64,000 bases of DNA from Candidatus Omnitrophota bacterium (GTDB lineage: Bacteria; Omnitrophota; Gorgyraeia; Gygaellales; Profunditerraquicolaceae): contig JAQUQW010000002.1 of assembly GCA_028716245.1 (NCBI GenBank), positions 8,947 through 72,946 on the forward strand, written 5' to 3'. Made by a program: the position numbers and the translations under genes. The notes beneath the pieces were generated by a model. It searched no databases, was not told where the DNA came from, and worked only from the letters and a program-made list of their open reading frames with translations. Positions within the stretch are counted from its first letter, which is position 1. Each line of letters starts with the position of its first letter. Shown here piece by piece: positions 9,683 to 46,361 of this stretch.

Positions 9683-9772
9683 CGCACCGCAGGGATATCT
9701 AAAAGAACTCTTTATTTCTAGATGAAGTATAGCACATATTTATAACAGAATCAACCCAGCCTCCAAGACTTT

Positions 9773-25662: not shown

Positions 25663-25667
25663 AAATT

Positions 25668-25868: not shown

Positions 25869-25882
25869 CGGGCGGTTTAGCT

Positions 25883-26020
25883 TCAGACGCAAAGGCGTTG
25901 TCTGCCCTTGCTCCGTCGACGAGCCAAAAGCTTGCGTCCGGATTTAGAGGCCATTTTACTGCGGAACCCGTGGCGTTTTTTACCGACAATATTTGTGGGT
26001 GTCTTTAAATTCTTTTTCAT
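25883..26020 (-). CDS. rpmH: 50S ribosomal protein L34
   Basis: Not in the ORF track (45 aa). Hand translation: [45 protein letters not shown], stop TGA. Confidence 0.9.
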
Positions 26021-26092
26021 TTGGAATCTCCCTTTTTATGAAATTGATTTTGTGAATTGTAACACACATTTATTCGCAGGTCAAGTTTTTTA

Positions 26093-26120
26093 TTGACGCT
26101 TCAACATATTACTGTATAAT
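26093..26120 (+). promoter_or_regulatory. candidate sigma70-type dnaA promoter (TTGACG-16-TATAAT)
   Basis: TTGACG at 26093-26098 and TATAAT at 26115-26120. A second extended -10 (TGTTATAAT, 26162-26170) with TTGCAA 17 nt upstream lies closer to dnaA. Confidence 0.45.
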
Positions 26121-26202
26121 AACTCACGTTTATCTTTTTTGCTTGCAAGGATTTTGCGCTCTGTTATAATAGCGGTGTTTAAAGAAAATTTGGTCGCCTG
26201 TT

Positions 26203-26233
26203 TTATCCACAGATTTATGCAAGTTGTGCATAA
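26203..26233. promoter_or_regulatory. DnaA boxes: perfect TTATCCACA (26203-26211) and inverted one-mismatch TGTGCATAA (26225-26233)
   Basis: Seen directly. Matches the canonical DnaA box TTATCCACA, about 55 bp upstream of the dnaA start codon. Plausibly autoregulatory and/or oriC-associated. Confidence 0.6.
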
Positions 26234-26265
26234 ACTGTTAACTCTGTAGATTCCGTCAGAAAATC

Positions 26266-27603
26266 ATGCTCGAGCTTACTAAAAACTGGGAAGAAACGCA
26301 AGAAACTTTAAAGGCTAAGTTAGGGGAAACGATCTTTGCTACCTGGATAGCGCCGTTGAAATTTTCGGTCCAAGATAGCCAAAGTATCAATCTTGAGGCG
26401 CCGGATCAATTTTTTAAAGATTGGGTGGAGAAACACTACTTCGACCTTATCCGGGAAACCTTGAAACATAAAGGCCTGGATAATCTGTTAGTAAGGCTGG
26501 TTGTCAGCAGCAGGCAGGAGGATTTAAGCGTCATTAATGCTTCTGTCGAAACCAATATTAAAAGCGCTCCTGCCACAGGCTTTATTAATCTTAATTCGCG
26601 TTATACATTTGAAAACTTTGTGGTGGGGCCGTCAAACCGGCATGCGCACGCTTATTCACTAGCGGTGGCCAATTCGCCGGCTAAAACATATAATCCGTTA
26701 TTCATTTATGGAGGGGTGGGGCTGGGCAAAACCCACCTGATCCAGGCGATCTGCCATCAAATAAAAAATAATAATCCCTCGGGAGTAAAAATATGCTACG
26801 TCTCAAGCGAAAAATTTACCAACGAACTAATTGACGCCATCGTCCACCGTTCCACCACGGCCTTCCGCCAAAAATACCGAAATCTGGATGTTTTGGTTAT
26901 CGACGATATCCACTTTATCGCCGGAAAAGAATCCACTCAGGAAGAGTTTTTCCACACCTTTAACACTTTATACGATGCGCATAAACAGATTGTGTTTTCT
27001 TCAGACCGCCCCCCCAAAGAAATTACCAATTTACAGGAAAGGCTGGTTTCACGGTTTGGCTGGGGGCTGGCTACGGATATTCAGCCTCCGGATTTAGAAA
27101 CCCGGGTGGCGATCCTCAAGAAAAAAATTGAACGGGAACCGGTTAATGTCCCTGATGAAGTAATTTTTTTTATCGCCCAACTAATTAAAACTAATATTCG
27201 TGAATTGGAGGGGGCTTTGATTAGAACCATCGCCTATTCTTTGCTAGAGGAGGCCCCGGTTACCCTGCAACTAACTAAAGAGGTGTTAAAGGACCTGCTC
27301 AAAGAACCGACAAAGCTAATCACAGTAGATTTTATCCAGCGTTGCGTAGTTGAAGAGTTCGGGATTTCCCTGCAGGATCTTAAAACCAAACGGCGCAATA
27401 AACAAGTTGTGTTCCCAAGGCAAATTGCCATGTATCTAAGCAGGGAGTTAACTGACTTGTCTCTGCCGGAAATTGGGGAGCTTTTTGGCGGCAAAGATCA
27501 TACAACAGTTTTGCACTCTTACAATAAGATTAAAGAAGATATTCACCGTAACCCGGAATTAAAAGAACGGGTTGAAAAAGTTGTTCAAGTTATAAAACAG
27601 TAA
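26266..27603 (+). CDS. dnaA: chromosomal replication initiator protein DnaA
   Basis: 445 aa. AAA+ Walker A GGVGLGKTHL, sensor motifs, C-terminal DnaA-box-binding domain (VVFPRQIAMYL...HTTV). Confidence 0.95.
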   Translation: MLELTKNWEETQETLKAKLGETIFATWIAPLKFSVQDSQSINLEAPDQFFKDWVEKHYFDLIRETLKHKGLDNLLVRLVVSSRQEDLSVINASVETNIKSAPATGFINLNSRYTFENFVVGPSNRHAHAYSLAVANSPAKTYNPLFIYGGVGLGKTHLIQAICHQIKNNNPSGVKICYVSSEKFTNELIDAIVHRSTTAFRQKYRNLDVLVIDDIHFIAGKESTQEEFFHTFNTLYDAHKQIVFSSDRPPKEITNLQERLVSRFGWGLATDIQPPDLETRVAILKKKIEREPVNVPDEVIFFIAQLIKTNIRELEGALIRTIAYSLLEEAPVTLQLTKEVLKDLLKEPTKLITVDFIQRCVVEEFGISLQDLKTKRRNKQVVFPRQIAMYLSRELTDLSLPEIGELFGGKDHTTVLHSYNKIKEDIHRNPELKERVEKVVQVIKQ

Positions 27604-27627
27604 TTCCCAGGTTATTAGAATGGACTA

Positions 27628-27653
27628 TTTGTCATAATTACTCTTATGACAAA
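27628..27653. promoter_or_regulatory. perfect 10-bp inverted repeat TTTGTCATAA-ttactc-TTATGACAAA in the dnaA-dnaN spacer, followed by an AT-rich stretch (possible oriC DUE module)
   Basis: Seen directly. Downstream 27690-27740 is about 85% AT (TTAAGTTATTAAATATATATAAATAG). Confidence 0.35.
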
Positions 27654-27744
27654 GGATTGGGCTCTTGTTAACAAATATGAGGTTGTATTACGGTTACTAT
27701 GATTTTAAGTTATTAAATATATATAAATAGAAGGGGAATCTAAG

Positions 27745-28839
27745 ATGAAATTTAAAGTCGAAAAAACAAACCTAGTTAACGCGATTCAGACCGTACAAAA
27801 CATAATTACCACAAAATCCGCCCTGCCAATCCTTTCCAATGTCTTAATTGAGGTTCAATCCGGGGTTCTGAAATTAACGGCAACCGATTTAGATATTGGA
27901 ATAACCTGTGTAATTCCTGTGGATATGCAGGAGCCTGGAGCAATTACTATCCCGGCTAAAAGATTTAGCGATATAGTTAAAGAGTTTCCTTTAGATATTA
28001 TTAGTGTTACTACTAAAAAAAATAATCAGGTCCTTATTGATTCGGATATGTGTCAATTTAAAATTATGGGGTTGGCCAAAGAAGAGTTTCCTAAGTTACC
28101 CGAATTTAAAGACAAGAAAGTTATTAAAATTAATCAGGGAGTTTTAAAACAAATATTAGCATTAACCGCGTTTGCGGTATCTTTCGATGAAACCCGTTAT
28201 GTTTTAAATGGCATTCTTTTTAAGATTAGTAAGGGGATCTTAACCCTGGTGGCTACTGACGGCAAGCGGTTGGCGATTACCGAGAGAAAAATAACCATGG
28301 CCGAGTCTGATGTCGAGGTGAGTATGATTATTCCGATCAAAACAATTCAGGAATTAAACCGGAACCTGAAAGATGAAGGGGAGCTGTCTTTAGTGGTTAG
28401 TAGTAATCAGGCTCTTTTTGATTTGGGTAGTGTTGCGGTTGTATCGCGTTTAATTGAGGGTGAATTTCCCGACTACAAACAAGTTATCCCTGCGGCATCC
28501 GAAAACAAAATGAAAGTTGAACGCCAACAGTTTTTATTGGCAGTCAAAAGAGCCGCGCTTTTAGCCACGCCGGATTATCAGGCGGTAAAGTTGGAAGTTT
28601 TTAAGAATAAGCTGGTAATTTCAAAATCTACTCCTGATGTGGGAGAGTTTCATGAAGAGTTGGCGGTAGAATATCAAGGTAAGGAGTTGGTGATTGGCTT
28701 TAACCCGGTCTATTTAATGGATGTTTTAAAGAATTTAAATGAAGAGACAGTTAGTTTAGAGTTGACGGACGCGGAAAAACCCGGGGTTATTCGGATTAGC
28801 GGTTATGTTTATATAGTTTTACCTATGCGCCTTAACTAG
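27745..28839 (+). CDS. dnaN: DNA polymerase III beta sliding clamp
   Basis: 364 aa. Three-domain clamp with conserved C-terminal VLPMRLN-type ending. Confidence 0.9.
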   Translation: MKFKVEKTNLVNAIQTVQNIITTKSALPILSNVLIEVQSGVLKLTATDLDIGITCVIPVDMQEPGAITIPAKRFSDIVKEFPLDIISVTTKKNNQVLIDSDMCQFKIMGLAKEEFPKLPEFKDKKVIKINQGVLKQILALTAFAVSFDETRYVLNGILFKISKGILTLVATDGKRLAITERKITMAESDVEVSMIIPIKTIQELNRNLKDEGELSLVVSSNQALFDLGSVAVVSRLIEGEFPDYKQVIPAASENKMKVERQQFLLAVKRAALLATPDYQAVKLEVFKNKLVISKSTPDVGEFHEELAVEYQGKELVIGFNPVYLMDVLKNLNEETVSLELTDAEKPGVIRISGYVYIVLPMRLN

Positions 28840-28842
28840 GAA

Positions 28843-29127
28843 ATGGAACTTTTAAAAAATACACTGGATGAAGTTATGCGGGGCTTAAACGCCAAAAAGG
28901 GTGTTTCCGCGAATGCCCAGCCGCAGCAGTGGTTAAAAAAAGCCTTGACAAAGAAAGAGTTGGGGCATATAAAAGTTAAATATTTCAGCAAGGGCGTCCT
29001 GGGTTTAAGCGTGGATTCTTCCGCCTGGCTGTATATTTTAAGCCTTAAGAAGGAAGAATTGCTGGGTAAGCTAAAAAAAGAAAACCCCGGATTAAAAAAT
29101 ATAAGTTTTCGTATCGGAGAAATTTAA
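28843..29127 (+). CDS. DUF721-domain protein (DciA-like), in the position usually held by recF
   Basis: 94 aa, basic. Sits between dnaN and gyrB. DUF721 is the defining domain of DciA helicase-operator proteins. Assignment from context and composition. Confidence 0.5.
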   Translation: MELLKNTLDEVMRGLNAKKGVSANAQPQQWLKKALTKKELGHIKVKYFSKGVLGLSVDSSAWLYILSLKKEELLGKLKKENPGLKNISFRIGEI

Positions 29128-31569
<2,442 letters not shown>

Positions 31570-31571
31570 TT

Positions 31572-34004
31572 ATGTACACGCGTAACGATAAAATAATTCA
31601 GGTTTATATCGAGGATGAGGTTAAGGACTCCTATTTAAATTACGCCATGAGCGTAATTGTCGGCCGGGCCCTGCCCGATGTGCGCGATGGCTTAAAGCCT
31701 GTGCACCGGCGTATTCTTTACGCCATGCGCGAACTTAACCTGGAACATTCCAAACCCTACAAGAAATGCGCCCGTATCGTCGGTGAAACCATGGGTAAAT
31801 ACCATCCGCATGGAGACGTGGCTATTTACGACACGCTGGTCAGAATGGCCCAGGATTTTTCTTTGCGCTATCCTTTAGTCGATGGCCAGGGTAACTTTGG
31901 ATCAGTGGATGGTGATGCCGCCGCGGCGATGCGTTATACCGAGGCCCGCCTGGCCGCGGTTAGCGATGAAATGTTAGATGATATTGAAAAAGAAACTGTA
32001 AATTTTGGGCCCAACTTCGATTCTTCTTTAAAAGAGCCTTTGCTGTTACCGGCAACTCTGCCTAATCTTTTGGTGAACGGCTCAAGCGGTATTGCCGTGG
32101 GCATGGCTACCAATATTCCGCCCCATAATTTAAACGAAGTTTGCGACGCGATCATTTATATCCTGGAACACCCGGAAGCAGAGATTAAAGATTTAATGCG
32201 TTATATCAAAGGGCCGGATTTTCCTACCGGCGGTTTGATTTGCGGCAAGGGTGGAATTAAGGATGCATATCAGACCGGTAGAGGTAAGCTCATAGTGCGG
32301 GCTAAGGCTACTGTGGAGCACCAGAAGAACGGCAAAGACCTGATTATCTTTACCGAGATTCCATATCAGGTGCAAAAGTCCGCTCTGATTGAGTCAATTG
32401 CCGGTTTAGTTGATGAGAAAAAAATCGAAGGTATTTCCGATATCCGCGATGAATCCGATAAAGAAGGTATGCGCATTGTCGTTGAGCTTAAGCGCGACAC
32501 TAAATCCCAGATTGTTTTAAACCAGCTTTTTAAACACACCCAGCTTGAAAACACCTTTGGGATTATTATGCTGGCCCTGGTCGATAACCGCCCGAAAGTT
32601 TTAAATTTACGCCAGGTACTGGATTGTTATATTGAGCATCGCAAAGTAGTCATCCGCAGGCGCACGCAGTTTGAATTAGATAAGGCTTTAAAACGCGCGC
32701 ATATTTTAGAAGGCTTAAAAATTGCGCTTAAATTTATCGACCGGATTATCAAGGTTATCAAGACCTCCAAGAGCGTCGAAAGCGCCAAATTAAATTTAAT
32801 GAAGGAGTTTGAGCTCTCCGAGATTCAATCCCAGGCGATCCTGGAGATGCAGCTGCAGCGGTTAACCGCCCTTGAGCGCGATAAAATTGACGCCGAGTAC
32901 GCGGAACTTTTAAAGAAAATCGAAGAATGCCGGGCAATCCTGGGCTCGCTTAAAAAGATCGAAGCCATCATTAAAGAAGAGCTGGAGGAATTAAAGAAAA
33001 AATATGGTGATAGCCGGCGCACGGATATTGTCGGGGAAGCGGAAGAGTTGGAGGTTGAGGATTTAATTGCCGAGGAGGATGTGGTGGTAACGATCAGCCA
33101 TGGCGGTTATATCAAGCGCCTGCCGGTAAGCTCGTATCGTAAACAAAAGCGCGGAGGTACCGGGTCAATGGGGGCGGAATTAAAAGAAGAAGATTTTAGC
33201 GAGCATCTTTTTGTGGCCTCTACTAAAGATTACTTGCTTATTTTTACGGATAAAGGACAGGTGCATTGGCTGAAGGTTTATGAAATTCCTCAGGCTAGTC
33301 GCATATCTAAGGGCAAAGCCATTGTTAATCTGGTGCAAATGGAACAGTCGGCTAAGGTGAGTTCGACCATTCCGGTCAAAGAGTTTTCGGCGGATAAATA
33401 TTTGGTTATGGTCACTAAGTTAGGCCAAATCAAAAAGACTAAGCTTGAGGCCTACGGTAATCCGCGCAAAGGCGGGATTATCGGGATCACTTTAGATAAG
33501 GATGATGTTTTGATTGGCGTGGAGATGACCGACGGAAAACAGGAGTTGCTTATCGGAACCAGGCAGGGCAAGGCAATCAGATTTTCCGAGGAAAAAGTAC
33601 GTGAAATGGGCAGGGGCGCCCATGGCGTACGGGCAATATCTTTGGCCAAAAAAGATGAAGTTATTGATATGGTGGTTCCGCAAAAGGCTTCGACGATCTT
33701 AACGGTTACGGAGTTAGGTTTTGCAAAACGCACCACCATTGATGAATACCGCCTAACCAGCCGCGGCGGCAAAGGGGTAATTAATATCAAAGTTACCGAT
33801 AAGAATGGCCAGGCGGTAAATTTAAAAACCGTGAATGATAAAGATGAGCTGATGGTCATTACTCAGAACGGGATATTTTTACGCTGCGCGATAAAAGATA
33901 TCCGGGAAACCGGCCGCTCATCCCAAGGGGTGCGCTTAATTAAGTTGCAGGATAAAGACCGGGTTTCCTGCGTTGCCCCGGTCATTGCCGAAGAAAATGA
34001 ATAA
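31572..34004 (+). CDS. gyrA: DNA gyrase subunit A
   Basis: 810 aa. Active-site region [11 protein letters not shown], GyrA-box and C-terminal beta-pinwheel repeats. Confidence 0.95.
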
Positions 34005-36600: not shown

Positions 36601-36628
36601 TTGACAATGAGGCAGCTAGTGGTATACT
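36601..36628 (+). promoter_or_regulatory. near-consensus sigma70 promoter TTGACA-16-TATACT for the pyr operon
   Basis: TTGACA 36601-36606 and TATACT 36623-36628. Confidence 0.55.
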
Positions 36629-36649
36629 TAAAACAATAAACGGACCTTT

Positions 36650-37291
<642 letters not shown>

Positions 37292-37292
<1 letters not shown>

Positions 37293-38230
37293 TGAGTTGG
37301 ACCAAGAAGGACCTTTTGGGCCTGGAATATTTAACGCCGGAGGAGATCGAACTTATTTTAGAGACCGCCGAATCTTTTAAGGAAGTTTCCACGCGGGAGA
37401 TCAAAAAAGTTCCCGCTCTTCGCGGTAAAACCGCGGTAAATCTTTTTTATGAACCATCCACGCGCACCCGGGTATCTTTTGAGGTCGCCGCTAAAAGGCT
37501 TTCTGCCGACGTGATCAATATCGCCACAGAAACTTCCAGCGTGCGCAAAGGCGAAACTTTAATTGATACAGGCAAAAACATCCAGGCGCTAAAAGCCGAC
37601 ATAATTATTATGCGGCATAATTATTCCGGCGCGGCCAATATGCTCGCCCGGGCTTTGGATATCAGCGTGGTTAATGCCGGAGATGGTTGGCATGAGCATC
37701 CTACCCAGGCGCTGCTGGATATTTTTACCTTAAAAGAAAAATTGGGAAAAATAAAAGGTTTAAATGTTGCCATTGTCGGCGACATCGCCCATTCCCGGGT
37801 TGCCCGTTCAAATATCTGGGGGCTGACTAAATTAGGGGCTAATGTTACGCTTTGCGCGCCGGAGATGTTGCTTCCCGTGGGAATTGAGCTAACCGGAGCA
37901 AAAACCTCCAGTAATCTCGATGAAGTTCTAAAAAAAGCCGACGCGGTGAATGTCTTAAGAATGCAGTTTGAGCGCGATGAAGACGCGGCATTTCCCGAGC
38001 AGTTGGATTATTTTAAAAAGTTTGGGATTACCGAAGAAAGATTGGCTAAAGCCAAGAAAGATATTGTGGTGATGCATCCGGGCCCGATTAACCGCGGGAT
38101 TGAGATGTCCAGCGAAGTGGCCGATGGGAAAAATTCCGTGATCTTGGAGCAGGTAACTAACGGTATTGCCGTAAGAATGGCGGTTTTATTTTTAGTCAGC
38201 CAGGCGAAAGAAAAAATGTGTAATGTGTAA
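37292..38230 (+). CDS. pyrB: aspartate carbamoyltransferase catalytic subunit
   Basis: 312 aa. STRTR and HPTQ motifs, HPGP C-terminal motif. Confidence 0.9.
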
Positions 38231-38252: not shown

Positions 38253-39527
38253 ATGAGTATTTTGATTAGGGGCGGCAGAGTAATTGACCCGGAAAATAAA
38301 ATTGACGCAAAACTGGATATCCTGATCGAGGGAAATAAAATATCCAAAGTCGCCAAAAATATTCAAGTCCAGGACGCCGTGATAATCAATGCCGATAATA
38401 AAATTGTCGCCCCGGGTATTATCGATATGCATGTGCATTTACGTGAACCCGGCAGGGAAGACAAGGAGACAGTGGCAACTGCCACGCTGGCTGCTGCCAA
38501 AGGCGGAGTAACTACGGTGTTGGCCATGCCTAATACCCAGCCGGCGATGGATTGCCCGGAGAGCGTCAGGTTGTTGAAGGAGATAATCAATAAAGACGCG
38601 AAGGTGAATGTGCTTATTTGCGGAACAATCACTAAAGGCCGTTTAGGTAAAGAGTTAAGCGATATTACCGCGTTAAAGAAAAGCGGTGTTTACGCTATAT
38701 CCGATGACGGATGCTCGGTGGATAGCGACGCGTTGATGTTTGAGGCGCTCAAAAAAGCAAAACAAGCCGGCCTTTTGACTATCTGCCATTCCGAAGATAA
38801 AAAACTTTCCGGCAAAGGGGTAATCAATTTAGGTTTTAATTCTACGCGCTTAGGGTTACGCGGCATATCTAATGAATCTGAATATAAGCGGGTCCGCAGG
38901 GATATCGAGTTAGCCAACAATGCCGCCTCCGCGGTGCATATCGCCCATGTGAGTTGCCGGGAGTCAGTGGAGATAATTACCCGGGCTAAAAAAACGGGTG
39001 TTCAGGTAACCTGTGAAACAGCCCCGCACTATTTTACGCTTACTGAAGACGCGCTTTTAGGATACGACACGAATATGAAAATGAATCCGCCCCTAAGAAG
39101 TAAAGAGGACCTTATCGCGATAAAACAGGGATTAAAGGACGGCACGATTGATGTGATTGCCTCGGATCACGCCCCGCACACTGAGAATGAAAAAGATATT
39201 GAGTTTGAACGCGCTGAATTCGGGGTGGTGGGATTAGAGACCGAGCTTTCCGCCGGCATCAATGAATTGTTAGCCAAAGGGGTTTTGGATTGGCCGGGAT
39301 TGGTTGAAAAGTTCTGCTTAAATCCCGCTAAAATTCTGGGTTTAGACACAGGTAAATTGTCAAAAGGGTCTCCCGCGGATATAATTATAGTTTCGGATCA
39401 AGAGCCCTGGGTGGTTGACAAGCAAAGCCTGGCCTCTAAATCCAAGAATTCCGCCTTTCTTGGCTATTCTCTAAAAGGCCGGCTAGATTACACAATTTGT
39501 AATGGCCAGCTAATTTATCAAAGGTAA
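38253..39527 (+). CDS. pyrC: dihydroorotase (multifunctional-complex type)
   Basis: 424 aa. Metal-binding HVHLREPG, amidohydrolase fold, DHAPH motif. Confidence 0.85.
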   Translation: MSILIRGGRVIDPENKIDAKLDILIEGNKISKVAKNIQVQDAVIINADNKIVAPGIIDMHVHLREPGREDKETVATATLAAAKGGVTTVLAMPNTQPAMDCPESVRLLKEIINKDAKVNVLICGTITKGRLGKELSDITALKKSGVYAISDDGCSVDSDALMFEALKKAKQAGLLTICHSEDKKLSGKGVINLGFNSTRLGLRGISNESEYKRVRRDIELANNAASAVHIAHVSCRESVEIITRAKKTGVQVTCETAPHYFTLTEDALLGYDTNMKMNPPLRSKEDLIAIKQGLKDGTIDVIASDHAPHTENEKDIEFERAEFGVVGLETELSAGINELLAKGVLDWPGLVEKFCLNPAKILGLDTGKLSKGSPADIIIVSDQEPWVVDKQSLASKSKNSAFLGYSLKGRLDYTICNGQLIYQR

Positions 39528-39529: not shown

Positions 39530-40771
39530 ATGGAATTTATCGCCGATTTTCACATTCACTCCAAATACTCACGGGCAACCAGCCGCGATATGGATATCAA
39601 GCATCTGGCGGAGTGGGCAAAATTAAAAGGGATCACCTTAATGGGCACAGGTGATTTTACGCACCATTTATGGCTGGAGGAATTAAAACACACATTGGAA
39701 GATTGCGGAAATGGATTATTCAAATATGCCGGCGTGGATTTTATGCTTACCTCCGAAATTAGCAGTATTTATTCTAAGGGAGGTAAAGGATATCGTATTC
39801 ATAATTTAATTTTTGCTCCTTCTTTCGCGGTCGTTGATAAAATTAATAACGCGCTTAGCCGCCGCGGAGCGAATTTATCCAGCGACGGCAGGCCAATTGT
39901 CGGAATTGCCGCCGATGAACTGGCGCGGATTGTCTTTGATATCGATGAGAACTGCATGATCGTCCCGGGCCATATTTGGACCCCCTGGTTTAGCGTGTTT
40001 GGATCGATGTCCGGTTTCGATAAGATCGAAGATTGTTTTGAAAAAGAAACTCCCAAAATATTTGCCCTGGAGACCGGTTTATCCAGCGATCCGGCGATGA
40101 ACTGGCGTTTAAGCGCGCTGGATAGATTTACGCTGATCTCTAACAGCGATTCACATTCGCCGCAGAAGATTGGCAGAGAAGCCAATGTGTTTAACTGCGA
40201 ATTAGATTATAAAACTATTCGTGAGGTTTTAAAAACCAAAGATAAAAGCAGATTTTTATATACCATTGAATTTTTCCCTGAGGAAGGTAAATACCATTTT
40301 GACGGGCACCGCCTCTGCGGTATCCGCTGGTCGCCGAAAGAAACCAGGGAGCACAATGGGAAATGTCCTAAGTGCGGCAAGCCGGTTACTGTTGGCGTGG
40401 TTAACCGGGTTGAAAAATTAGCTGACCGGCCGGAAGGATTTAAGCCTGAAAACGCCGTTCCTTTTAAAAACCTGATTCCTTTCTCCGAAATAATCGCTGA
40501 AGCAAAAGGAGTAGGGAATGCTTCTGTGGCCGTAGAGAGGGATTACCGAATTTATCTGGCTAAATTTGGCACTGAGTTTAATATTTTACTTAAGGCTTCA
40601 AAGGATGAACTGCTGAAAAGCCTGCCGCCTAAAGTTGTGGAGGGTATTTTACGCGTGCGCGCAGGTAAAGTGAATATCAAAGCAGGTTTTGACGGCGAAT
40701 ATGGCATAATTTCCATCTTTGATGATCATGATCAACAGGAGAAAAGCGAACAACAATTAAGTTTATTTTAA
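39530..40771 (+). CDS. PHP-domain protein with C-terminal zinc finger, endonuclease Q-like (TIGR00375-type)
   Basis: 413 aa. N-terminal MEFIADFHIHSKYSRATS PHP metal-binding motif and GTGDFTHH. C-terminal CGIRW...CPKCGKP zinc ribbon. Resembles the archaeal/Bacillus EndoQ architecture. Coupled 2 nt after pyrC. Confidence 0.5.
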   Translation: MEFIADFHIHSKYSRATSRDMDIKHLAEWAKLKGITLMGTGDFTHHLWLEELKHTLEDCGNGLFKYAGVDFMLTSEISSIYSKGGKGYRIHNLIFAPSFAVVDKINNALSRRGANLSSDGRPIVGIAADELARIVFDIDENCMIVPGHIWTPWFSVFGSMSGFDKIEDCFEKETPKIFALETGLSSDPAMNWRLSALDRFTLISNSDSHSPQKIGREANVFNCELDYKTIREVLKTKDKSRFLYTIEFFPEEGKYHFDGHRLCGIRWSPKETREHNGKCPKCGKPVTVGVVNRVEKLADRPEGFKPENAVPFKNLIPFSEIIAEAKGVGNASVAVERDYRIYLAKFGTEFNILLKASKDELLKSLPPKVVEGILRVRAGKVNIKAGFDGEYGIISIFDDHDQQEKSEQQLSLF

Positions 40772-40772: not shown

Positions 40773-40844
40773 GCGCCTGTAGCGCAACGGATAGCGCACT
40801 AGCCTCCGAAGCTAGTGGTGACAGTTCAATTCTGTCCAGGCGCA
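40773..40844 (+). tRNA. tRNA-Arg (anticodon CCG)
   Basis: GCGCCTGTAGCGCAACGGATAGCGCACTAGCCTCCGAAGCTAGTGGTGACAGTTCAATTCTGTCCAGGCGCA. Anticodon loop CTCCGAA. Confidence 0.8.
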
Positions 40845-40916: not shown

Positions 40917-42485
40917 ATGCGAAAAAAAGTCATTATTTTGGGTGGCGGGCCCAATCGTATTGGTCAAGGGATTGAATTTGATTATTGTTGCTGCCATGCG
41001 GCGTATGCCTTAAGAGAGGAAGGCATAGAAAGTATTATGGTTAACTGTAATCCTGAAACAGTATCCACTGATTATGATACCTCTGACCGGCTTTATTTTG
41101 AGCCGCTTACCTTTGAAGATATTATGAATATCATCGAAAAAGAAAAACCAATGGGGGTAATTGTGCAGTTTGGCGGACAGACTCCGTTAAACCTGGCGGT
41201 TCCTTTACTTAAAGCCGGGATTAGGCTTTTAGGGACAAGCGCTGATAGCATTGATATTGCCGAAGACCGCAAACGTTTTAAACAGATGCTCGATAAACTT
41301 GGCCTTTTGCAGCCGGTTAATGGCACGGCATTTACCTTTGAGCAGGCAAAGGAGGTGGTCAATCGAATCGGTTATCCGGTATTGGTGCGGCCTTCGTATG
41401 TGTTGGGCGGCAGGGCGATGGAGATTGCCTACGATGAGCAGGTTTTAGAAAAGTTTATTCAAGAAGCGTCGGCGGTTTCCGGAGAGCATCCGATCTTGGT
41501 TGACAAATTTTTGGAGGATGCCATAGAAATTGATGTGGACTTAGCCGGAGACGGCAAGGATTTTATAATCGGCGGGATTATGGAGCATATTGAGCAGGCC
41601 GGGGTGCATTCCGGCGACGCGGCGATGTCCCTGCCGACCTACACATTATCTACTGAAATATTAAAACAAATCCGTTTGGCGACGGTGCATATGGCCAAAG
41701 AATTACATGTGATCGGGCTGATGAATGTGCAGTACGCGGTAAAGGATGGTAAGGTTTATATTTTGGAGGTTAACCCCCGCGCTTCGCGCACCGTGCCCTT
41801 TGTTTCCAAGGTGATCGGAGTGCCTTTAGCAAAATTGGCAACCAAAGTGATGTTGGGAAAGAAACTAAAAGAATTAGGTTTTACCAAAGAAATTATTCCA
41901 AAGCACGTGGCAATCAAAGAATCGGTATTTCCTTTTAATCGTTTTCCGGGAGTAGATATAATTCTCGGGCCCGAGATGAAATCTACCGGAGAGGTAATGG
42001 GAATTGACGCGGATTTCGGCCAGGCCTATATCAAAAGCCAGTTAGCCGCCGGGCAAAAACTGCCCAAAAAAGGCAATGTCTTTATTTCCGTTAATGACCG
42101 GGATAAAAGGAATATTATTTTAATTGCCAAAAAGTTAAAGGATTTAGGTTTTAAGATCTATGCTTCAGAGGGGACGGCTGCGGCACTAGCCAAAAGCAAG
42201 ATTGCGGCTAAGGTTTTACCTAAAATATCGGAAGGCAAACCCAATGTTTTGGATTTGATGAAGGAGGGCAAGATCCAGCTGGTAATTAATACTCCTTCGG
42301 GGAGGATCCCGCGGCTGGATGAGGTAAAAATACGTTCGCAGGTTATTTTGTGCGGCATACCTTATACCACGACCATCTTTGGGGCCCAGGCCACCGTAAG
42401 CGGGATCGAGGTGCTGTTAAAGAAAAAACTCAAAGTTAAACCGCTGCAGGAATATTATAAGATAAAAGGCAGGAGAATAAAATAG
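40917..42485 (+). CDS. carB: carbamoyl-phosphate synthase large subunit, C-terminal half only (split carB: second ATP-grasp plus MGS-like domain)
   Basis: 522 aa. CPSase large-chain C-half signatures (IEFDYCCCHAAYAL, MNVQYAVKDGKVYILEVNPRASRTVPFVSK) and C-terminal MGS-like allosteric domain. No N-terminal half or carA in the window. Confidence 0.8.
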   Translation: MRKKVIILGGGPNRIGQGIEFDYCCCHAAYALREEGIESIMVNCNPETVSTDYDTSDRLYFEPLTFEDIMNIIEKEKPMGVIVQFGGQTPLNLAVPLLKAGIRLLGTSADSIDIAEDRKRFKQMLDKLGLLQPVNGTAFTFEQAKEVVNRIGYPVLVRPSYVLGGRAMEIAYDEQVLEKFIQEASAVSGEHPILVDKFLEDAIEIDVDLAGDGKDFIIGGIMEHIEQAGVHSGDAAMSLPTYTLSTEILKQIRLATVHMAKELHVIGLMNVQYAVKDGKVYILEVNPRASRTVPFVSKVIGVPLAKLATKVMLGKKLKELGFTKEIIPKHVAIKESVFPFNRFPGVDIILGPEMKSTGEVMGIDADFGQAYIKSQLAAGQKLPKKGNVFISVNDRDKRNIILIAKKLKDLGFKIYASEGTAAALAKSKIAAKVLPKISEGKPNVLDLMKEGKIQLVINTPSGRIPRLDEVKIRSQVILCGIPYTTTIFGAQATVSGIEVLLKKKLKVKPLQEYYKIKGRRIK

Positions 42486-42486: not shown

Positions 42487-43287
42487 ATGCCGGAATTACC
42501 GGAAGTAGAGACAATTAAGCGTGATCTTCGGAAGATAATTACAGGTAAGAAGATTATCAGGATTGATATAAATAATCCCAAAGTCATAAGAGAGCCTGCG
42601 CCTTCGGCCTTTAAGAAGTCTTTAGAGGGGCAAGCCATAAAGAATATCTTGCGCCGGGCAAAACTACTGATTTTTAAATTATCTAATGGTCTGGATCTGG
42701 CTGTACACCTGAAAATGACTGGTCAACTAGTCTATCCCGGAGGCAGCAGCAAGAGCAGGTTAGCCATCCGTTTTTCAGATGGCACAATCTTAGATTTCAA
42801 TGATCAGCGTTTATTCGGAGAATTGCGCCTCGTTGGCAATTGGAAAAAATTAAAATTTGTCCAGGGGCTGGGGCCTGAACCATTTGATTTGACTTTCGCC
42901 GGTTTTAAGGATATGCTCTCCAAGAGAAAAACTAAAATCAAGCCGCTGCTTATGGACCAGTCATTTGTCTCCGGGATCGGCAATATTTATGCCGCCGAGA
43001 TTTTATTCCGGGCAAAGATTGATCCGCGCAGAACCGCATTGAGTTTAACCGAAAAAGAAAAACAAACTTTATATAGAGAAATAAAAGATGTATTAAACAG
43101 CGCGATCAGGCACGGCGGCTCCTCGGTGGATGATTATGTCCGCCTTTCCGGAAAACCGGGGGATTACCGGCGTTTTCATCGGGTTTATGACCGGGTGGGT
43201 AAGTCCTGTTTTGTTTGCCGCAGCCCGATCAAAAAAATTACGCAAGGAGGAAGGGGCACTTATTTTTGCGGTAGGTGCCAAAAATAA
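42487..43287 (+). CDS. mutM: formamidopyrimidine-DNA glycosylase
   Basis: 266 aa. MPELPEVE N-terminus (Pro2 nucleophile), H2TH, C-terminal CxxC...CxxC zinc finger. Confidence 0.85.
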   Translation: MPELPEVETIKRDLRKIITGKKIIRIDINNPKVIREPAPSAFKKSLEGQAIKNILRRAKLLIFKLSNGLDLAVHLKMTGQLVYPGGSSKSRLAIRFSDGTILDFNDQRLFGELRLVGNWKKLKFVQGLGPEPFDLTFAGFKDMLSKRKTKIKPLLMDQSFVSGIGNIYAAEILFRAKIDPRRTALSLTEKEKQTLYREIKDVLNSAIRHGGSSVDDYVRLSGKPGDYRRFHRVYDRVGKSCFVCRSPIKKITQGGRGTYFCGRCQK

Positions 43288-43290: not shown

Positions 43291-43998
43291 ATGAAAAAAC
43301 GCCTGAAGATTAACGGAATAATTATGGGTTGTGCCGGTATTTTGATTGTATTGTTTCCCGGTGTTTTTCTCCGCGGATACTCAGGGGCTGCCGGAGATGG
43401 CTGGATCAGGCTTTTGGGTTTTGCCCTTATTTTCTTAGGCCAGATCATCCGGGTTTCGGCCCGAGGCTATAAAGCTGAGCATTCCGATCAAAGCCAGGCA
43501 TTAATCCAGGGCGGGCCGTATCAGCTCGTGCGTAATCCCATGTATCTGGGGATATTTTTAATCGGCCTGGGCGTGGTCCTGGCGGTATTCCGATGGTGGG
43601 CGGTAGCAATTTTTGTTACTGTTTTTATTATCCGCTATTTACTGCTGATCTATAAAGAGGAAAAAAAACTTTTAACAATATTCCCGGTAACCTATCAAGA
43701 GTATTGCCGAAAAGTCCCGCGGATTTTTCCTTCATTATCCGGCCTGATAAAATTAGACATCGGAGATTATTTACCAATAAAGATAATCTGGTTTCAGAAA
43801 GAGATCGGCTCGATTGTGGCGCTCCTTTTGCTTACTCTGCTGGTAGCATCTTGGGAGGAAATCTCCGGGAAAGGATTTAACGCCTATCTTCAGCAGCTGC
43901 TCTGGTTATTTTTAACTCTTACTTTATTTGTATTTTTAGTGATTTTACTTAGCCGGTGGACTAAGAAAATAGATGAAAACAGCGCAAATAAAAGCTAA
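43291..43998 (+). CDS. membrane methyltransferase of the isoprenylcysteine carboxyl methyltransferase / phospholipid methyltransferase family
   Basis: 235 aa, polytopic. GGPYQLVRNPMYLG and EEKKLLTIF...YQEYCRKVP are ICMT/PEMT-family hallmarks. Extra C-terminal TM segments. Confidence 0.55.
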   Translation: MKKRLKINGIIMGCAGILIVLFPGVFLRGYSGAAGDGWIRLLGFALIFLGQIIRVSARGYKAEHSDQSQALIQGGPYQLVRNPMYLGIFLIGLGVVLAVFRWWAVAIFVTVFIIRYLLLIYKEEKKLLTIFPVTYQEYCRKVPRIFPSLSGLIKLDIGDYLPIKIIWFQKEIGSIVALLLLTLLVASWEEISGKGFNAYLQQLLWLFLTLTLFVFLVILLSRWTKKIDENSANKS

Positions 43999-44749
43999 GT
44001 TAATTTCCAATCACAGATTCAGCGGTAATTATTGGCATTTGGAATTTGAGTCGGGGGTAATTGCCAAAAACGCCCAACCAGGGCAGTTTGTGAATATCAG
44101 GGTTAGCGACGGACTTGAGCCGTTATTAAGAAGGCCGGTTAGTATTCACAGGGTAAAGGGGGCAAAGGTTAAACTTTTTTATGAGGTTGTCGGAGCAGGC
44201 ACGCAGGTTTTATCCCAAAGAAAACCCGGCGAGCTTCTGGATATGATCGGCCCGCTGGGTAATGGGTTTGATTACCGGGGAGCAATTAAAGCAAAAGCAG
44301 GAAAAAATATTTTAATTGCCGGAGGCATGGGGGTTGCCCCGCTTGTTTTTCTGGCTGAAAAGATAAAATTAAGCAAGCCTTTAGTTTTAATCGGAGCCAG
44401 GACAAAAAAACAGATTCTTTGCGCGCGGGAATTTAAGGCTTTAGGATGCGGTGTGGAGTTAGCTACCGATGACGGTTCAGCCGGGTTTAAGGGCAAGGCC
44501 ACGGATTTATTAAAAATTGTTTTAGTGCAAGCCAAGCCGTTGGGATTATTTTCTTGCGGCCCGCGTCCGATGTTAAAAGCGGTGAGTGAAATTGCCCGGG
44601 AAAATAAAATCCCTGCGCAACTTTCTTTAGAAGAGCATTTGGCCTGTGGTATCGGTGCTTGTTTAGGCTGCGTTGTTTCTACTAAAATCGGTTATAAACG
44701 GGTTTGTAAAGACGGCCCGGTTTTTTCAAGCCAGGAGTTAACATGGTAA
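43973..44749 (+). CDS. pyrK: dihydroorotate dehydrogenase electron-transfer subunit
   Basis: 258 aa. FAD/NAD-binding ferredoxin-reductase fold and C-terminal Cys cluster CGIGACLGCVV for 2Fe-2S. Confidence 0.8.
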   Translation: MKTAQIKAKLISNHRFSGNYWHLEFESGVIAKNAQPGQFVNIRVSDGLEPLLRRPVSIHRVKGAKVKLFYEVVGAGTQVLSQRKPGELLDMIGPLGNGFDYRGAIKAKAGKNILIAGGMGVAPLVFLAEKIKLSKPLVLIGARTKKQILCAREFKALGCGVELATDDGSAGFKGKATDLLKIVLVQAKPLGLFSCGPRPMLKAVSEIARENKIPAQLSLEEHLACGIGACLGCVVSTKIGYKRVCKDGPVFSSQELTW

Positions 44750-45678
44750 AACAGGCCAAGCCCGATTTAAGCGTAAGCATAGGCAAACTTAAACTGAAAA
44801 ATCCGGTAATGGTGGCCAGCGGGACATTCGGCTATGCCGAAGAATTCAGGGATTTTGTCGACCTGAAAAAACTGGGAGCCATTGTTACCAAAACCATTAC
44901 GATTAAGGCCCGCTACGGGAACTTTCCTCCCCGAACCTGCGAAACTCCTGCCGGCATGCTTAATTCTATCGGCCTGGAAAATCCCGGAATTAATAAATTT
45001 ATCAAAGAGAAGCTTCCTTTCTTAAAAAAGCTAACTATCCCGATTATTGTCAGTATTGCCGCCGAAGAAAGCCCGGATGAGTTTGCTATTTTGGCCAAAC
45101 AACTGGACAGTATTGATGAAGTTTCCGCAATTGAACTAAATATATCCTGTCCCAACCTGCATAAGGATAAATTGATTTCCCAAGATGCCAAGGACACCTT
45201 TGAATTAGTCAGCTCAGTACGTAAGCTTACGCGGAAATGCTTAATCACCAAGCTGTCGCCCAATGTAATCTCCATCAGCGAAATCGCTTTGGCGGCCCAA
45301 GACGCCGGCAGCGATGCGGTAGCCTTAATCAATACCCTTGGCGGCATGAGTATAGATGTAAATAAGCGTGTTCCTAAATTAGGTTCTTGGGCAGGAGGCT
45401 TAAGCGGCCCGGCAATCCGGCCCGTAGCCGTTAAGATGGTCTGGGAGGCTTATAATAAGATTAAGATTCCCATTATCGGTATGGGTGGTATAATGGATAC
45501 AGCAAGCGCTTTGGAATTTTTGATTGCCGGCTCTAGCGCAATCAGCATCGGGACAGCAAACTTTATTAATCCCAAAGCCAGTTTGGAGATTATCTGCGGA
45601 TTGGAACAATATATGGCGGACAATAATATTCAGGATTTAAGCAAGCTTACGGGAAAATTAAAAGCGTGCCAAGATTAA
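44743..45678 (+). CDS. pyrD: dihydroorotate dehydrogenase (class 1B) catalytic subunit
   Basis: 311 aa. NPVMVASGTFGY, LNISCPN, IIGMGGI motifs. Confidence 0.85.
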   Translation: MVKQAKPDLSVSIGKLKLKNPVMVASGTFGYAEEFRDFVDLKKLGAIVTKTITIKARYGNFPPRTCETPAGMLNSIGLENPGINKFIKEKLPFLKKLTIPIIVSIAAEESPDEFAILAKQLDSIDEVSAIELNISCPNLHKDKLISQDAKDTFELVSSVRKLTRKCLITKLSPNVISISEIALAAQDAGSDAVALINTLGGMSIDVNKRVPKLGSWAGGLSGPAIRPVAVKMVWEAYNKIKIPIIGMGGIMDTASALEFLIAGSSAISIGTANFINPKASLEIICGLEQYMADNNIQDLSKLTGKLKACQD

Positions 45679-46361
45679 ATAAGCCTCAAATCATACTTGC
45701 TTTAGATGTGGATACGATAAAAGAGGCTAAGAGTTTTGTAGATAAGCTTTATCCCAGAATAAAAATCTTTAAGGTTGGCAGCCAGCTTTTTACTGCTTAC
45801 GGGCCAAAGATTATTGAGTTAATACATAAAAAAGGCGCCGAGGTTTTTTTGGATCTTAAATACTTTGATATTCCTAATACCGTTGCTCAGGCTACAGCCG
45901 CGGCAGGACGTCTTAAAGTAAAGATGTTTACTTTGCATATTTCCGGAGGCAAAGAAATGATTGAGGCTGCCGTAGCATCAGCCAGGCATCAGGCAAAAGT
46001 ATCCGGATTAAGAAGGCCGCTGTTAATCGGAGTTACGGTTTTAACCAGCCAAAAAGCTCACCCCGCAGAAGTTTTAAAATTAGCGCGACAGGGATTAGCC
46101 TCCGGACTAGACGGAGTTGTTTGTTCGGTGCGCGAGGCAGCTGCCCTACGGAAAAAAATAAAAAATAAATTTGTAATGATTACTCCGGGGATAAGGCTTA
46201 ATGGTTCTCTTCAAGACGACCAGAAGAGGACGGCTACGGTAAAGGAAGCGGTAAAAGCCGGGAGCGATTTTTTAGTTATCGGCAGGCCGATTTTAAAAGC
46301 AGCGGACCCGCTTAAAAAGGCAAAAGAACTTTTGGGAGACTTACATGGCGCAGGAAATTAA
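45666..46361 (+). CDS. pyrF: orotidine 5'-phosphate decarboxylase
   Basis: 231 aa. ILALDV...FKVGSQLF and DLKYFDIPNT motifs. Confidence 0.8.
   Translation: MPRLNKPQIILALDVDTIKEAKSFVDKLYPRIKIFKVGSQLFTAYGPKIIELIHKKGAEVFLDLKYFDIPNTVAQATAAAGRLKVKMFTLHISGGKEMIEAAVASARHQAKVSGLRRPLLIGVTVLTSQKAHPAEVLKLARQGLASGLDGVVCSVREAAALRKKIKNKFVMITPGIRLNGSLQDDQKRTATVKEAVKAGSDFLVIGRPILKAADPLKKAKELLGDLHGAGN

Follow-up and report, generated by a model that had tools for sequence, protein, structure and literature searches.

An endonuclease Q family gene within a predicted PyrR-attenuated pyrimidine operon: conserved linkage to pyrC within a mostly Omnitrophota-labelled clade

The question raised by this locus is whether a gene resembling that of a DNA repair nuclease truly belongs to a bacterial pyrimidine biosynthesis operon and, if so, what this association could mean. 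The stretch of DNA analysed, referred to below as the window, comprises 64,000 nucleotides from a Candidatus Omnitrophota genome. For Omnitrophota, uncultured bacteria of which many are ultra-small, mutation spectra and genome streamlining are easier to interpret once the repair repertoire is known. The gene and the parts of its product are located as follows:

39530..40771, plus strand: endoQ, endonuclease Q family protein (homology to the P. furiosus enzyme, TIGR00375, fold match)
39530..40276, plus strand: PHP catalytic domain of EndoQ (aa 1-249; residue mapping onto the P. furiosus enzyme)
40277..40477, plus strand: predicted Zn-binding domain of EndoQ (aa 250-316; H260-x2-C263 ... C279-x2-C282)
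40478..40723, plus strand: C-terminal helical domain of EndoQ (aa 317-398; aligned to P. furiosus residues 304-384)
40754..40768, plus strand: QLSLF pentapeptide, predicted beta sliding-clamp binding consensus (motif match)

The ORF opens with ATG and encodes a standalone protein of 413 residues with no helicase fusion. It is confirmed as coding for a bacterial relative of endonuclease Q (EndoQ), whose activity would be that of the family by homology. The match to P. furiosus EndoQ (PfuEndoQ; 5zb8/7k30) pairs query residues 5-398 with chain residues 5-384 at 35% identity (E 7.2e-57), which for a 413-residue ORF and a solved structure is far beyond chance. Two tests set beforehand agreed with this assignment: in the profile search TIGR00375 was the sole NCBIfam match (E 9.8e-57, 193 bits, full length, 2-374 of 374), with no match to histidinol-phosphatase or PolX PHP models, and all the catalytic residues of PfuEndoQ were present in the alignment. 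The score lies below the curated equivalog cut-off of TIGR00375 (326.6 bits), which indicates that the window protein represents a more distant branch than the trusted members of the model. A Pfam scan of the ORF returned no match, PHP included; this is no argument against membership, because PF27218 is newer than the Pfam copy scanned, and homologues 81-97% identical carry both the name "endonuclease Q family protein" and a precomputed PF27218 (MJ0043_C) assignment. Near-identical proteins from MAGs labelled Candidatus Omnitrophica/Omnitrophota already bear the same name. An AF2 model, whose input alignment was shallow (27 sequences with identities of 82% or more) and whose confidence was moderate (pLDDT 64), served as a fold-level check and not for site geometry. 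Its best PDB matches were 5zb8 and 7k30 (E 7e-23, TM 0.56-0.58, 400-420 columns), generic PHP esterases trailed at E 2e-4 or worse (TM 0.3-0.4), and the helical domain at the C-terminus was its best-predicted part.

The residues expected of an active enzyme are conserved. The metal ligands of PfuEndoQ are H8, H10, E76, H84, H139 and D193 (PMC5961232), and the PHP metal-site residues of the window protein are all kept (H8, H10, E76, H91, H148, D207 and H209, the Pfu counterparts including His195); the catalytic columns vary little or not at all across 82 aligned sequences. The sequence-only reading had placed the metal-binding signature at FIADFHIHSKYS (residues 3-14) and GTGDFTHH (residues 39-46); the N-terminal motif is indeed present, while the second stretch is conserved but falls outside the metal-ligand list of PfuEndoQ (PMC5961232). 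The lesion pocket of the latter involves His139, Thr142, Glu167, Leu168, Gly169, Leu170, Asn191 and Asp193 (PMC5961232). H148, T151, E181, G183, L184, N205 and D207 of the window protein are identical to their Pfu equivalents, as is W153 (Pfu Trp144), and the one change in the pocket, Pfu Leu168 to Thr182, affects a position whose contribution is through main-chain atoms (PMC5961232). W153 is not termed a wedge here, since PMC11354406, in its account of the EndoQ-DNA complex, describes base flipping without a side-chain wedge. The C-terminal zinc CxxC proposed earlier corresponds to C279-x2-C282 (C-P-K-C), but its partner is H260-x2-C263 and not a second CxxC. The four ligand positions of this predicted Zn site are in register with Pfu Cys249, Cys252, Cys268 and Cys271, and His replaces the first of these cysteines in all bacterial sequences compared (81/81). 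The Zn-binding and C-terminal domains were found to be unique to EndoQ in the 2018 structure paper (PMC5961232).

The last residues of the protein are QLSLF, and QL[SNKT]LF terminates nearly all of 120 close homologues. The broader pattern Q-x-x-[LM]-F is found at a fixed offset past GYDGE[YF]G in both standalone and UvrD-fused relatives; a motif of the beta-clamp type was already remarked for bacterial EndoQ (PMC4858679).

The family was also described in the sequence-only reading as barely studied in bacteria. This holds for experiments, as the Bacillus pumilus enzyme (Shiraishi et al. 2017, cited in PMC8438529) is the sole EndoQ from bacteria known to nick U/Hx/AP DNA, but not for distribution, the homologues being very widespread and already auto-annotated. 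The search of a 50%-identity library retrieved 3662 clusters at E values of 0.001 or less, and a homologue occurs in at least 572 species-representative genomes of many bacterial phyla, some being labelled Micrarchaeota. EndoQ-UvrD fusions of about 1000-1200 aa dominate the nearest 50%-identity clusters (P0124-P0128 and others; among the loci, L047, L051, L069, L071, L074-L076 and L078). Three genomic contexts recur, namely fusion to UvrD, a neighbouring PolX or UvrD-type helicase-nuclease gene, and insertion into a pyr operon, the latter in one clade. PolX adjoins endoQ in 7 loci, most of which bear labels of Patescibacteria/CPR groups, and a UvrD-PD(D/E)XK gene does so in 5 loci. The window encodes a separate PcrA/UvrD-like helicase at 4589-6616 on the minus strand.

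The pyr operon surrounding endoQ includes the following elements:

36601..36628, plus strand: sigma70-like promoter, TTGACA-16 nt-TATACT with TG extension (pattern match only)
36641..36744, plus strand: predicted PyrR-binding stem-loop/transcription attenuator (RF00515, 43.2 bits)
36753..37292, plus strand: pyrR, bifunctional regulator/uracil phosphoribosyltransferase (NF003549, 261 bits, cut-off 138)
37292..38230, plus strand: pyrB, aspartate carbamoyltransferase (NF002032, 408.5 bits, cut-off 263)
38253..39527, plus strand: pyrC, dihydroorotase (TIGR00857, 402.7 bits, cut-off 279)
40773..40844, plus strand: tRNA-Arg(CCG), embedded in the operon (71.2 bits)
40917..42485, plus strand: carB, C-terminal half only (second ATP-grasp and MGS-like domain; NCBIfam)
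42487..43287, plus strand: mutM/fpg, formamidopyrimidine-DNA glycosylase (NF002211, 279.6 bits, cut-off 212)
43291..43998, plus strand: ICMT/PEMT-like membrane methyltransferase, a passenger gene (PF04191, 42.8 bits; PF04140, 28.4 bits)
43973..44749, plus strand: pyrK, dihydroorotate dehydrogenase electron-transfer subunit (NF000798, 201.6 bits; NF000799, 198.6 bits)
44743..45678, plus strand: pyrD, dihydroorotate dehydrogenase class 1B (NF005574, 377 bits, cut-off 269)
45666..46361, plus strand: pyrF, OMP decarboxylase (NF001273, 242 bits, cut-off 193)

All genes are co-directional, with intergenic spacings of -26 to +22 nt (the tRNA spacer excepted) and a uniform GC content of 43-48% throughout. 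The pyrC TAA ends at 39527 and a 2-nt gap (AT) precedes the endoQ ATG at 39530, as had been stated from the sequence; AAAGG lies 5 nt 5' of this ATG, and the tRNA gene begins 1 nt past the endoQ stop. NCBIfam and tRNA searches also bore out the downstream order previously read (tRNA-Arg, C-terminal half of carB, mutM and pyrKDF), in which the methyltransferase gene at 43291-43998, between mutM and pyrK, had been overlooked. The truncated carB covers profile positions 551-1057 of 1058 and matches residues 554-1063 of a full-length CarB, and a search for the N-terminal half found none within the 64-kb window. pyrK matches NF000798 and NF000799 over their full length, its NF000798 score being under the cut-off of 219. 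The start of pyrR is probably at 36753 and not at 36708 as given by the ORF lister: the listed start falls within the attenuator hairpin, the NF003549 alignment begins at residue 16 of the listed ORF, and the orthologue in the related locus L001 has 179 aa.

Packing of this kind is general in the region. The wider neighbourhood is a long co-directional array of overlapping genes near oriC that includes dnaA, dnaN (27745-28839), gyrBA, glmS, rsmI, pyr and V-ATPase genes; the 3' end of pyrF and the first V-type ATPase gene share 17 nt, and glmS overlaps rsmI. With the whole region so tightly packed, little about functional logic can be read from operon membership alone.

The leader of the operon probably contains a PyrR attenuator (36641..36744), even at a sub-threshold score. 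The RF00515 hit spans the full model (1-115), with E values of 6e-5 in a 301-nt search and 0.002 in a 10-kb search, and lies below the gathering score of 54; Rfam at the gathering threshold detected no PyrR element in this search, the hit surfacing in E-value mode alone. A terminator hairpin at 36712-36735 followed by a T-run was located in the leader independently of RF00515. The rating as probable derives from positional conservation, since an RF00515 element occurs directly 5' of pyrR in L002, L008, L010 and L014 (41-51 bits, all below the gathering score of 54), that is, one site per operon, kept in position in 4/4 relatives having a leader. The candidate pyr promoter shows 11/12 matches and is the top site in the region. 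Promoter-like sites (22 against 18.9 in shuffled sequence) and terminator-like sites (20 against 16.7) are not more numerous than expected, and no internal terminator is claimed given the terminator count.

Alternatively, endoQ may be transcribed from an internal promoter of its own. A promoter-like site with 11/12 matches lies inside pyrC (39357-39385); compared across four orthologous loci, its hexamers are unconserved beyond coding need, and it probably arose by chance. The pattern scan and this four-locus comparison together revealed no conserved internal promoter. From the architecture we infer that endoQ is co-expressed with the pyr genes, most likely transcribed from the pyr promoter, subject to UMP/UTP-responsive attenuation by PyrR and translated in coupling with pyrC, as an internal cistron would be.

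The position of endoQ is not peculiar to the window. Nineteen related loci have the order pyrC-endoQ-(carB or pyrK), with identities as low as 54% for EndoQ and 43% for PyrC, and pyrC-endoQ synteny holds in every clade locus with upstream sequence (17/17). The order was found in none of about 60 loci of other phyla, where UvrD fusion or a neighbouring PolX or UvrD-type helicase gene is seen instead. The pyr-linked loci form a single clade in a neighbour-joining tree of EndoQ without bootstrap support. Most of them are labelled Omnitrophota, some TPA MAG contigs being labelled 'uncultured Planctomycetia' or 'Saccharibacteria', and in the same tree, again without bootstrap support, the pyr-linked contigs group with Omnitrophota sequences. 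The earlier claim of a placement inside a pyr operon is thus real as architecture and extends to this clade. Two layouts are distinguished: variant A contains carB/mutM, whereas in variant B endoQ lies directly between pyrC and pyrK, with no adjacent tRNA. ATGA-type pyrC/endoQ overlaps as well as endoQ/pyrK overlaps occur in L008, L010, L011, L021 and L024. In 7 relatives the pyrC-endoQ gap measures 78-1560 nt, four of them having an extra Mut7-C gene inside it, so translational coupling would be common and not universal. The tRNA-Arg following endoQ is kept in L001-L006, L009, L012 and L013. Passengers that vary among lineages include the methyltransferase, tRNA-Arg, a SLOG-cluster4 gene, a Mut7-C RNase-domain gene and mutM; endoQ is the sole passenger present in every pyr-linked locus. 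Recent horizontal transfer was considered and rejected on account of the uniform GC content and the old synteny.

Considered together, these data probably describe an EndoQ of a bacterial clade that is tethered to the sliding clamp and produced from an internal cistron of a PyrR-attenuated pyr operon, an arrangement that would have originated once and been kept. The operon would run from the promoter and the PyrR attenuator through pyrR-pyrB-pyrC-endoQ-tRNAArg-carB'-mutM-methyltransferase-pyrK-pyrD-pyrF, having arisen in the ancestor of the mostly Omnitrophota-labelled clade. By homology, the Zn-binding and C-terminal helical domains of EndoQ would bind duplex DNA, and an AP site, or a base deaminated to uracil, hypoxanthine or xanthine, would be flipped into a small pocket beside the two-metal PHP site. 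The phosphodiester immediately 5' of the lesion would then be hydrolysed, leaving a 3'-OH and a lesion-bearing 5'-phosphate. QLSLF most likely anchors the enzyme on the beta sliding clamp, in the way that archaeal EndoQ is tethered to PCNA by its C-terminal PIP box. Removal of the lesion would subsequently require nick translation or flap removal and ligation, or a UvrD-type helicase, candidates for which are the domain fused to EndoQ in many relatives and the separate PcrA/UvrD-like protein of this genome.

Other explanations differ in how much of this picture they retain. The possibility that the ORF encodes a generic PHP protein, of the histidinol-phosphatase or PolX type, similar to EndoQ at the N-terminal motif only, draws on the fact that the HxH motif is common to all PHP domains; it is refuted by the profile scans (0 matches to Pfam PHP or to the histidinol-phosphatase/PolX NCBIfam models), by the full-length PfuEndoQ alignment spanning the Zn-binding and C-terminal domains, and by the fold match, and its probability is negligible. 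The protein could instead be a PHP phosphoesterase neofunctionalised for metabolism or RNA processing, for instance as a nucleotidase or as a nuclease for the embedded tRNA, and would then not be a DNA-repair endonuclease. Among PHP domains are those of nucleotide phosphoesterases as well as of the RNase AM family, which appear as weak fold matches at ranks 5-9, and endoQ lies amid nucleotide-biosynthesis genes directly 5' of a tRNA gene. Such a role is nevertheless highly improbable: the three EndoQ domains, the lesion pocket and the clamp motif, superfluous for a small-molecule esterase, are all kept, among relatives 50-59% identical, EndoQ is joined to a UvrD helicase or adjoins PolX, endoQ of variant B has no adjacent tRNA, and the pyrimidine pathway has no step requiring such an activity.

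A frozen accident is a much more serious contender, whose likelihood falls a little short of even. The enzyme would be the same, its gene having entered the operon a single time, 3' of pyrC and 5' of the remaining pyr genes, and being held there by selection against rearranging an essential operon with tight overlaps rather than by a need for repair to follow pyrimidine status, with its level set mostly by read-through and its function unrelated to that of the pyr genes. The single phylogenetic origin of the linkage and its lack in the roughly 60 loci from other phyla agree with this, as do the coming and going of unrelated passengers and the generic packing seen at the pyrF/V-ATPase and glmS/rsmI overlaps. 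Against it, endoQ alone among the passengers is never lost, and the linkage has outlasted both the sequence divergence and the remodelling into variants A and B; there is in addition a plausible rationale, as a candidate only, in that the uracil content of DNA is a function of the pools of pyrimidine nucleotides. The further proposal that PyrR sets the level of two base-damage repair enzymes, EndoQ and, in the lineage of the window, Fpg, as a selected regulatory coupling, is a doubtful one. If it were true, nucleotide-pool sensing would be tied to DNA repair, a tie that translational coupling to pyrC and pyrK would strengthen, and uracil-repair capacity would rise when UMP/UTP is low and the dUTP:dTTP balance is most liable to disturbance.

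The window protein is a further member of a known family, encoded in an operon context that is conserved but undescribed, and its occurrence in the pyr operon constitutes a modest new observation on that family. The understanding of EndoQ itself is unchanged. The value of the locus is comparative and hypothesis-generating, as a concrete case of DNA-repair genes under a predicted nucleotide-sensing attenuator.

Among known systems, P. furiosus EndoQ (PF1551; PDB 5ZB8, 7K30-7K33) shares with the window protein the PHP/Zn-binding/C-terminal helical architecture with end-to-end 35% identity, all metal ligands, nearly all pocket residues and a clamp motif at the extreme C-terminus. The window protein differs in its predicted H-C-C-C Zn ligands, the first being His and not Cys, in a 7-residue insertion after E76, and in the beta-clamp motif QLSLF in place of the PIP box QRTLLQYI; its host is a bacterium and not an archaeal hyperthermophile, and its gene lies within a pyr operon. 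Bacillus pumilus EndoQ resembles it as a standalone bacterial family member. The N-terminal ~420 aa of the EndoQ-UvrD fusions are 46-59% identical to the window protein and have the H-C-C-C site as well as Q-x-x-L-F at the same offset, whereas the window ORF ends at residue 413 after the motif, with a tRNA gene 1 nt on and no helicase domain. The Bacillus-type pyr operon (RF00515) likewise has pyrR first, a leader stem-loop with terminator, and pyrB, pyrC, carB, pyrK, pyrD and pyrF on the same strand; in the window operon one attenuator is detected instead of three, pyrP, carA and pyrE are missing, carB is cut to its C-terminal half, and four passengers (endoQ, tRNA-Arg, mutM and the methyltransferase) are present. 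Endonuclease V (Nfi) is similar to EndoQ in being lesion-specific for deaminated bases and in starting an alternative excision repair (PMC4357722, PMC5961232), but it has an unrelated fold and cleaves 3' of the lesion at the second bond, in contrast to EndoQ, which cuts immediately 5'.

The gene for the endonuclease Q homolog (endoQ) was found where the sequence-only reading had placed it, 2 nt after the pyrC stop codon (TAA, with AT as spacer), and is preceded by AAAGG 5 nt upstream of its ATG. The motifs described for its product are present (FIADFHIHSKYS at residues 3-14, GTGDFTHH at 39-46 and CPKC at 279-282), and the downstream succession of tRNA-Arg, carB C-terminal half, mutM and pyrKDF was recovered by a tRNA scan and NCBIfam profiles; a methyltransferase gene had been overlooked.

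Genes of the pyr operon in the window, in order.
Probable start 36753, forward strand: pyrR (NCBIfam 261 bits, cut-off 138)
Forward strand: pyrB (NCBIfam 408 bits, cut-off 263)
Stop codon 39525-39527, forward strand: pyrC (TIGR00857 403 bits, cut-off 279)
39530-40771, forward strand: endoQ (413 aa, ATG start)
40773-40844, forward strand: tRNA-Arg(CCG), 1 nt past the endoQ stop and 72 nt ahead of carB
40917-42485, forward strand: carB, C-terminal half (NCBIfam profile positions 551-1057 of 1058)
Forward strand: mutM (NCBIfam 280 bits, cut-off 212)
43291-43998: ICMT/PEMT-like membrane methyltransferase (profile match)
Forward strand: pyrK, pyrD and pyrF (identified with NCBIfam)

The window protein matched a single NCBIfam family, TIGR00375, over the full profile length (positions 2-374 of 374, E 9.8e-57); its score of 193 bits does not reach the curated equivalog cut-off (326.6). 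A search of all PDB sequences gave significant matches (E 7e-57) to the entries of the Pyrococcus furiosus enzyme alone (PfuEndoQ; 5ZB8, 7K30-7K33), query residues 5-398 being aligned to chain residues 5-384 with 35% identity. In PfuEndoQ two zinc ions are bound by His8, His10, Glu76, His84, His139 and Asp193, with His195 close by, the lesion pocket comprises His139, Thr142, Glu167, Leu168, Gly169, Leu170, Asn191 and Asp193, and a C4 zinc site is made up of Cys249, Cys252, Cys268 and Cys271 (PMC5961232). Alignment mapping showed that the catalytic residues H8, H10, E76, H91, H148 and D207 and, at the same metal site, H209 are identical in the window protein, as are T151, W153, E181, G183, L184 and N205; Leu168 is replaced by Thr182. 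The four zinc-site positions hold His260, Cys263, Cys279 and Cys282, and the histidine is not peculiar to this protein: the first position is His in 81 of 81 aligned bacterial sequences and Cys in PfuEndoQ alone. AlphaFold2 modeling on a shallow alignment gave a pLDDT of only 64; the closest PDB folds to the model were 5zb8 and 7k30 (about 400 columns, E 7e-23, TM 0.56-0.58), and generic PHP esterases gave E 2e-4 or worse. Neither a better match to other PHP families nor a loss of catalytic residues, the two outcomes that the sequence-only reading had set against its assignment, was found; profile, PDB, residue and fold results point to EndoQ. Family membership and catalytic machinery are securely assigned; EndoQ activity, metal use and substrate range of the window protein are predicted from sequence.

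From pyrR to pyrF the genes are spaced by -26 to +22 nt, with the exception of the 145-nt endoQ-carB interval that contains the tRNA, and GC content is uniform over the operon. A pattern scan ranked a sigma70-like site upstream of pyrR (36601-36628, TTGACA-16-TATACT with TG) best in the region. Downstream of it lies a stretch matching the PyrR-binding attenuator RF00515 (36641-36744, 43.2 bits, E 6e-5, below the gathering score of 54), whose terminator hairpin and T-run the pattern scan picked up independently. This is the sole such element across the 10-kb operon, and an RF00515 element of 41-51 bits stands immediately upstream of pyrR in four other loci (L002, L008, L010, L014). The true pyrR start is probably the homology-supported ATG at 36753, because the start given by the ORF lister (36708) falls within the terminator hairpin. 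The claimed placement of endoQ in a pyrimidine operon holds as gene architecture, and operon membership in this sense is secure; co-transcription under PyrR control is the most economical reading. An internal promoter serving endoQ is possible, but the sole candidate, at 39357-39385 within pyrC, shows no conservation across orthologous loci.

Other features of the region were recorded. The tRNA-Arg(CCG) has a protein-coding cistron on either side, a placement shared by nine relatives, and its release would require cutting of the polycistronic RNA. The window carB corresponds to residues 554-1063 of full-length CarB, and neither carA nor the N-terminal half of carB was found within the 64-kb window; the gene is either split, its remaining half lying elsewhere, or codes for a half-size synthetase. 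At the same position carB is half-size in L001-L003, L005, L006 and L056 and full-length in L004, L009, L012 and L013. As pyrF overlaps the first V-type ATPase gene by 17 nt (46345-46361), the pyr operon runs unbroken into an unrelated operon (subunits E, A, B, D, I and others, up to about 53380). An origin-proximal gene set lies at 24133-34004 (yidC on the reverse strand; dnaA, dnaN, gyrB and gyrA on the forward strand), and the pyr operon, about 10 kb from dnaA, is on the leading strand, as GC skew is positive through it. A 6S RNA was detected at 9539-9698 on the reverse strand (RF00013, 74.5 bits, gathering score 46.4).

Conservation of the linkage was addressed by tblastn of the window proteins against 81 loci. 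The order pyrR-pyrB-pyrC-endoQ also occurs in L001-L012, L014, L021, L022, L030 and L043, and L024 and L034 show endoQ-pyrK-pyrD on contigs without upstream sequence. Identity across the pyr-linked set falls from 87% to 54% for EndoQ and from 79% to 43% for PyrC. Two variants were distinguished: pyrC-endoQ-tRNAArg-(SLOG gene)-carB-mutM-(methyltransferase)-pyrKDF, and pyrC-endoQ-pyrK-pyrD-pyrF without the tRNA. The pyrC stop and endoQ start are at most 6 nt apart or overlap in the window and in 10 of the 17 relatives that have pyrC (as ATGA in L008, L010 and L011), and an overlap of the endoQ stop with the pyrK start is seen in L010, L011, L021 and L024. A Mut7-C RNase-domain gene separates pyrC from endoQ in L006 (9065-9523), L007 (3702-4169), L012 (9549-9998) and the deep-branching L043 (9549-10004); it encodes 150 aa (PF01927, up to 153 bits) and is absent from the window. 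Also absent from it is the SLOG cluster-4 gene (PF18306, LOG-like, 167 aa), which separates tRNA-Arg from carB in seven pyr-linked loci (for example L004, 7297-7800) and adjoins endoQ in L016, L017, L054 and L073, labeled as two Saccharibacteria, one Spechtbacteria and one unclassified.

In a neighbor-joining tree without bootstrap all pyr-linked EndoQs form one clade, with L013, which keeps only endoQ-tRNA-carB...mutM, nested within. No pyr gene was detected within 10 kb of endoQ in any of the roughly 60 loci that belong to other phyla. DNA-repair neighborhoods occur instead: PolX, a PHP-domain DNA polymerase of family X, adjoins endoQ in seven loci labeled mostly Patescibacteria/CPR groups (L018, L026, L027, L028, L032, L040, L041), and a 972-aa UvrD-PD(D/E)XK helicase-nuclease in five (L035, L037, L050, L063, L079). 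In L055 (10001-15022, labeled Patescibacteria group) glmS and a mutM homolog (38% identity) come after endoQ, giving a second, independent EndoQ-Fpg neighborhood.

Whether the arrangement reflects selected coupling with a functional logic or a frozen accident is about evenly balanced. EndoQ is the only passenger kept in every pyr-linked locus, the mutM, methyltransferase, tRNA, SLOG and Mut7-C genes varying between them, and coupling has a rationale in the dependence of DNA uracil on pyrimidine pools. However, the linkage has a single origin, is absent elsewhere and lies near dnaA/dnaN/gyrBA in a region so densely packed that pyrF and a V-ATPase gene overlap, as do glmS and rsmI. Once inserted in an essential overlapping operon, a gene may be hard to move. 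The conserved embedding is a comparative-genomic observation, and its functional meaning is hypothetical. The protein belongs to a known family already named by annotation pipelines, and its H-C-C-C zinc site, clamp motif and wide bacterial distribution are clade properties, partly noted in the literature. The embedding in a PyrR-led pyr operon appears undescribed, since our literature search found no paper treating EndoQ and Omnitrophota together.

EndoQ has been described as confined to Euryarchaeota and a few bacteria, the Bacillus pumilus enzyme being the only bacterial one characterized experimentally (PMC8438529). This picture of a narrow distribution is out of date: a scan of species-representative genomes found a homolog in at least 572, labeled Omnitrophota, Patescibacteria, Thermodesulfobacteriota, Nitrospirota, WOR-3, Aminicenantes, KSB1, Chloroflexi, Bacteroidales and Micrarchaeota among others, and a 50%-identity library gave 3662 clusters at E <= 0.001 (1019 at E <= 1e-30). 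The nearest proteins (81-97% identity) come from MAGs labeled Candidatus Omnitrophica/Omnitrophota, all carry PF27218, and are named 'endonuclease Q family protein' by NCBI ('DNA helicase UvrD' in older records). LAGLIDADG inteins occur in a few homologs (P0121, P0122, P0123, P0164), and the insert of about 420 aa in P0122 and P0123 directly precedes the catalytic His148 (VPGH/IPAH motif).

The window protein ends in ...EQQLSLF, and its last five residues, QLSLF, are the consensus pentapeptide for beta-clamp binding (QL[SD]LF). Nearly all of the 120 closest homologs terminate in QL[SNKT]LF; more distant relatives carry Q-x-x-[LM]-F about 22 residues past a conserved GYDGE[YF]G, a position that is C-terminal in standalone proteins and belongs to the linker of UvrD fusions (as Q-x-x-L-F). 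Cleavage by archaeal EndoQ is stimulated when the enzyme binds PCNA through its C-terminal PIP box, and beta-clamp motifs in bacterial homologs were already remarked (PMC4858679). The motif, not new in itself, supports a DNA-bound role, and the window protein would bind the clamp.

Most of the 80 loci kept hold a standalone endoQ of about 410-440 aa, eight being fusions (L047, L051, L069, L071, L074-L076, L078). The best 150 library clusters (46-59% identity) are mostly proteins of 1000-1200 aa with an N-terminal EndoQ module followed by UvrD helicase domains (fusions among P0124-P0270), an architecture widespread in bacteria for which no mention was found in the EndoQ literature consulted. 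A separate PcrA/UvrD-like helicase gene lies at 4589-6616 on the reverse strand of the window (446 bits to TIGR01073, short of its cut-off, 911). In contrast to the fusions, which carry their own helicase, the EndoQ of the window is helicase-less, with this separate helicase as a possible partner.
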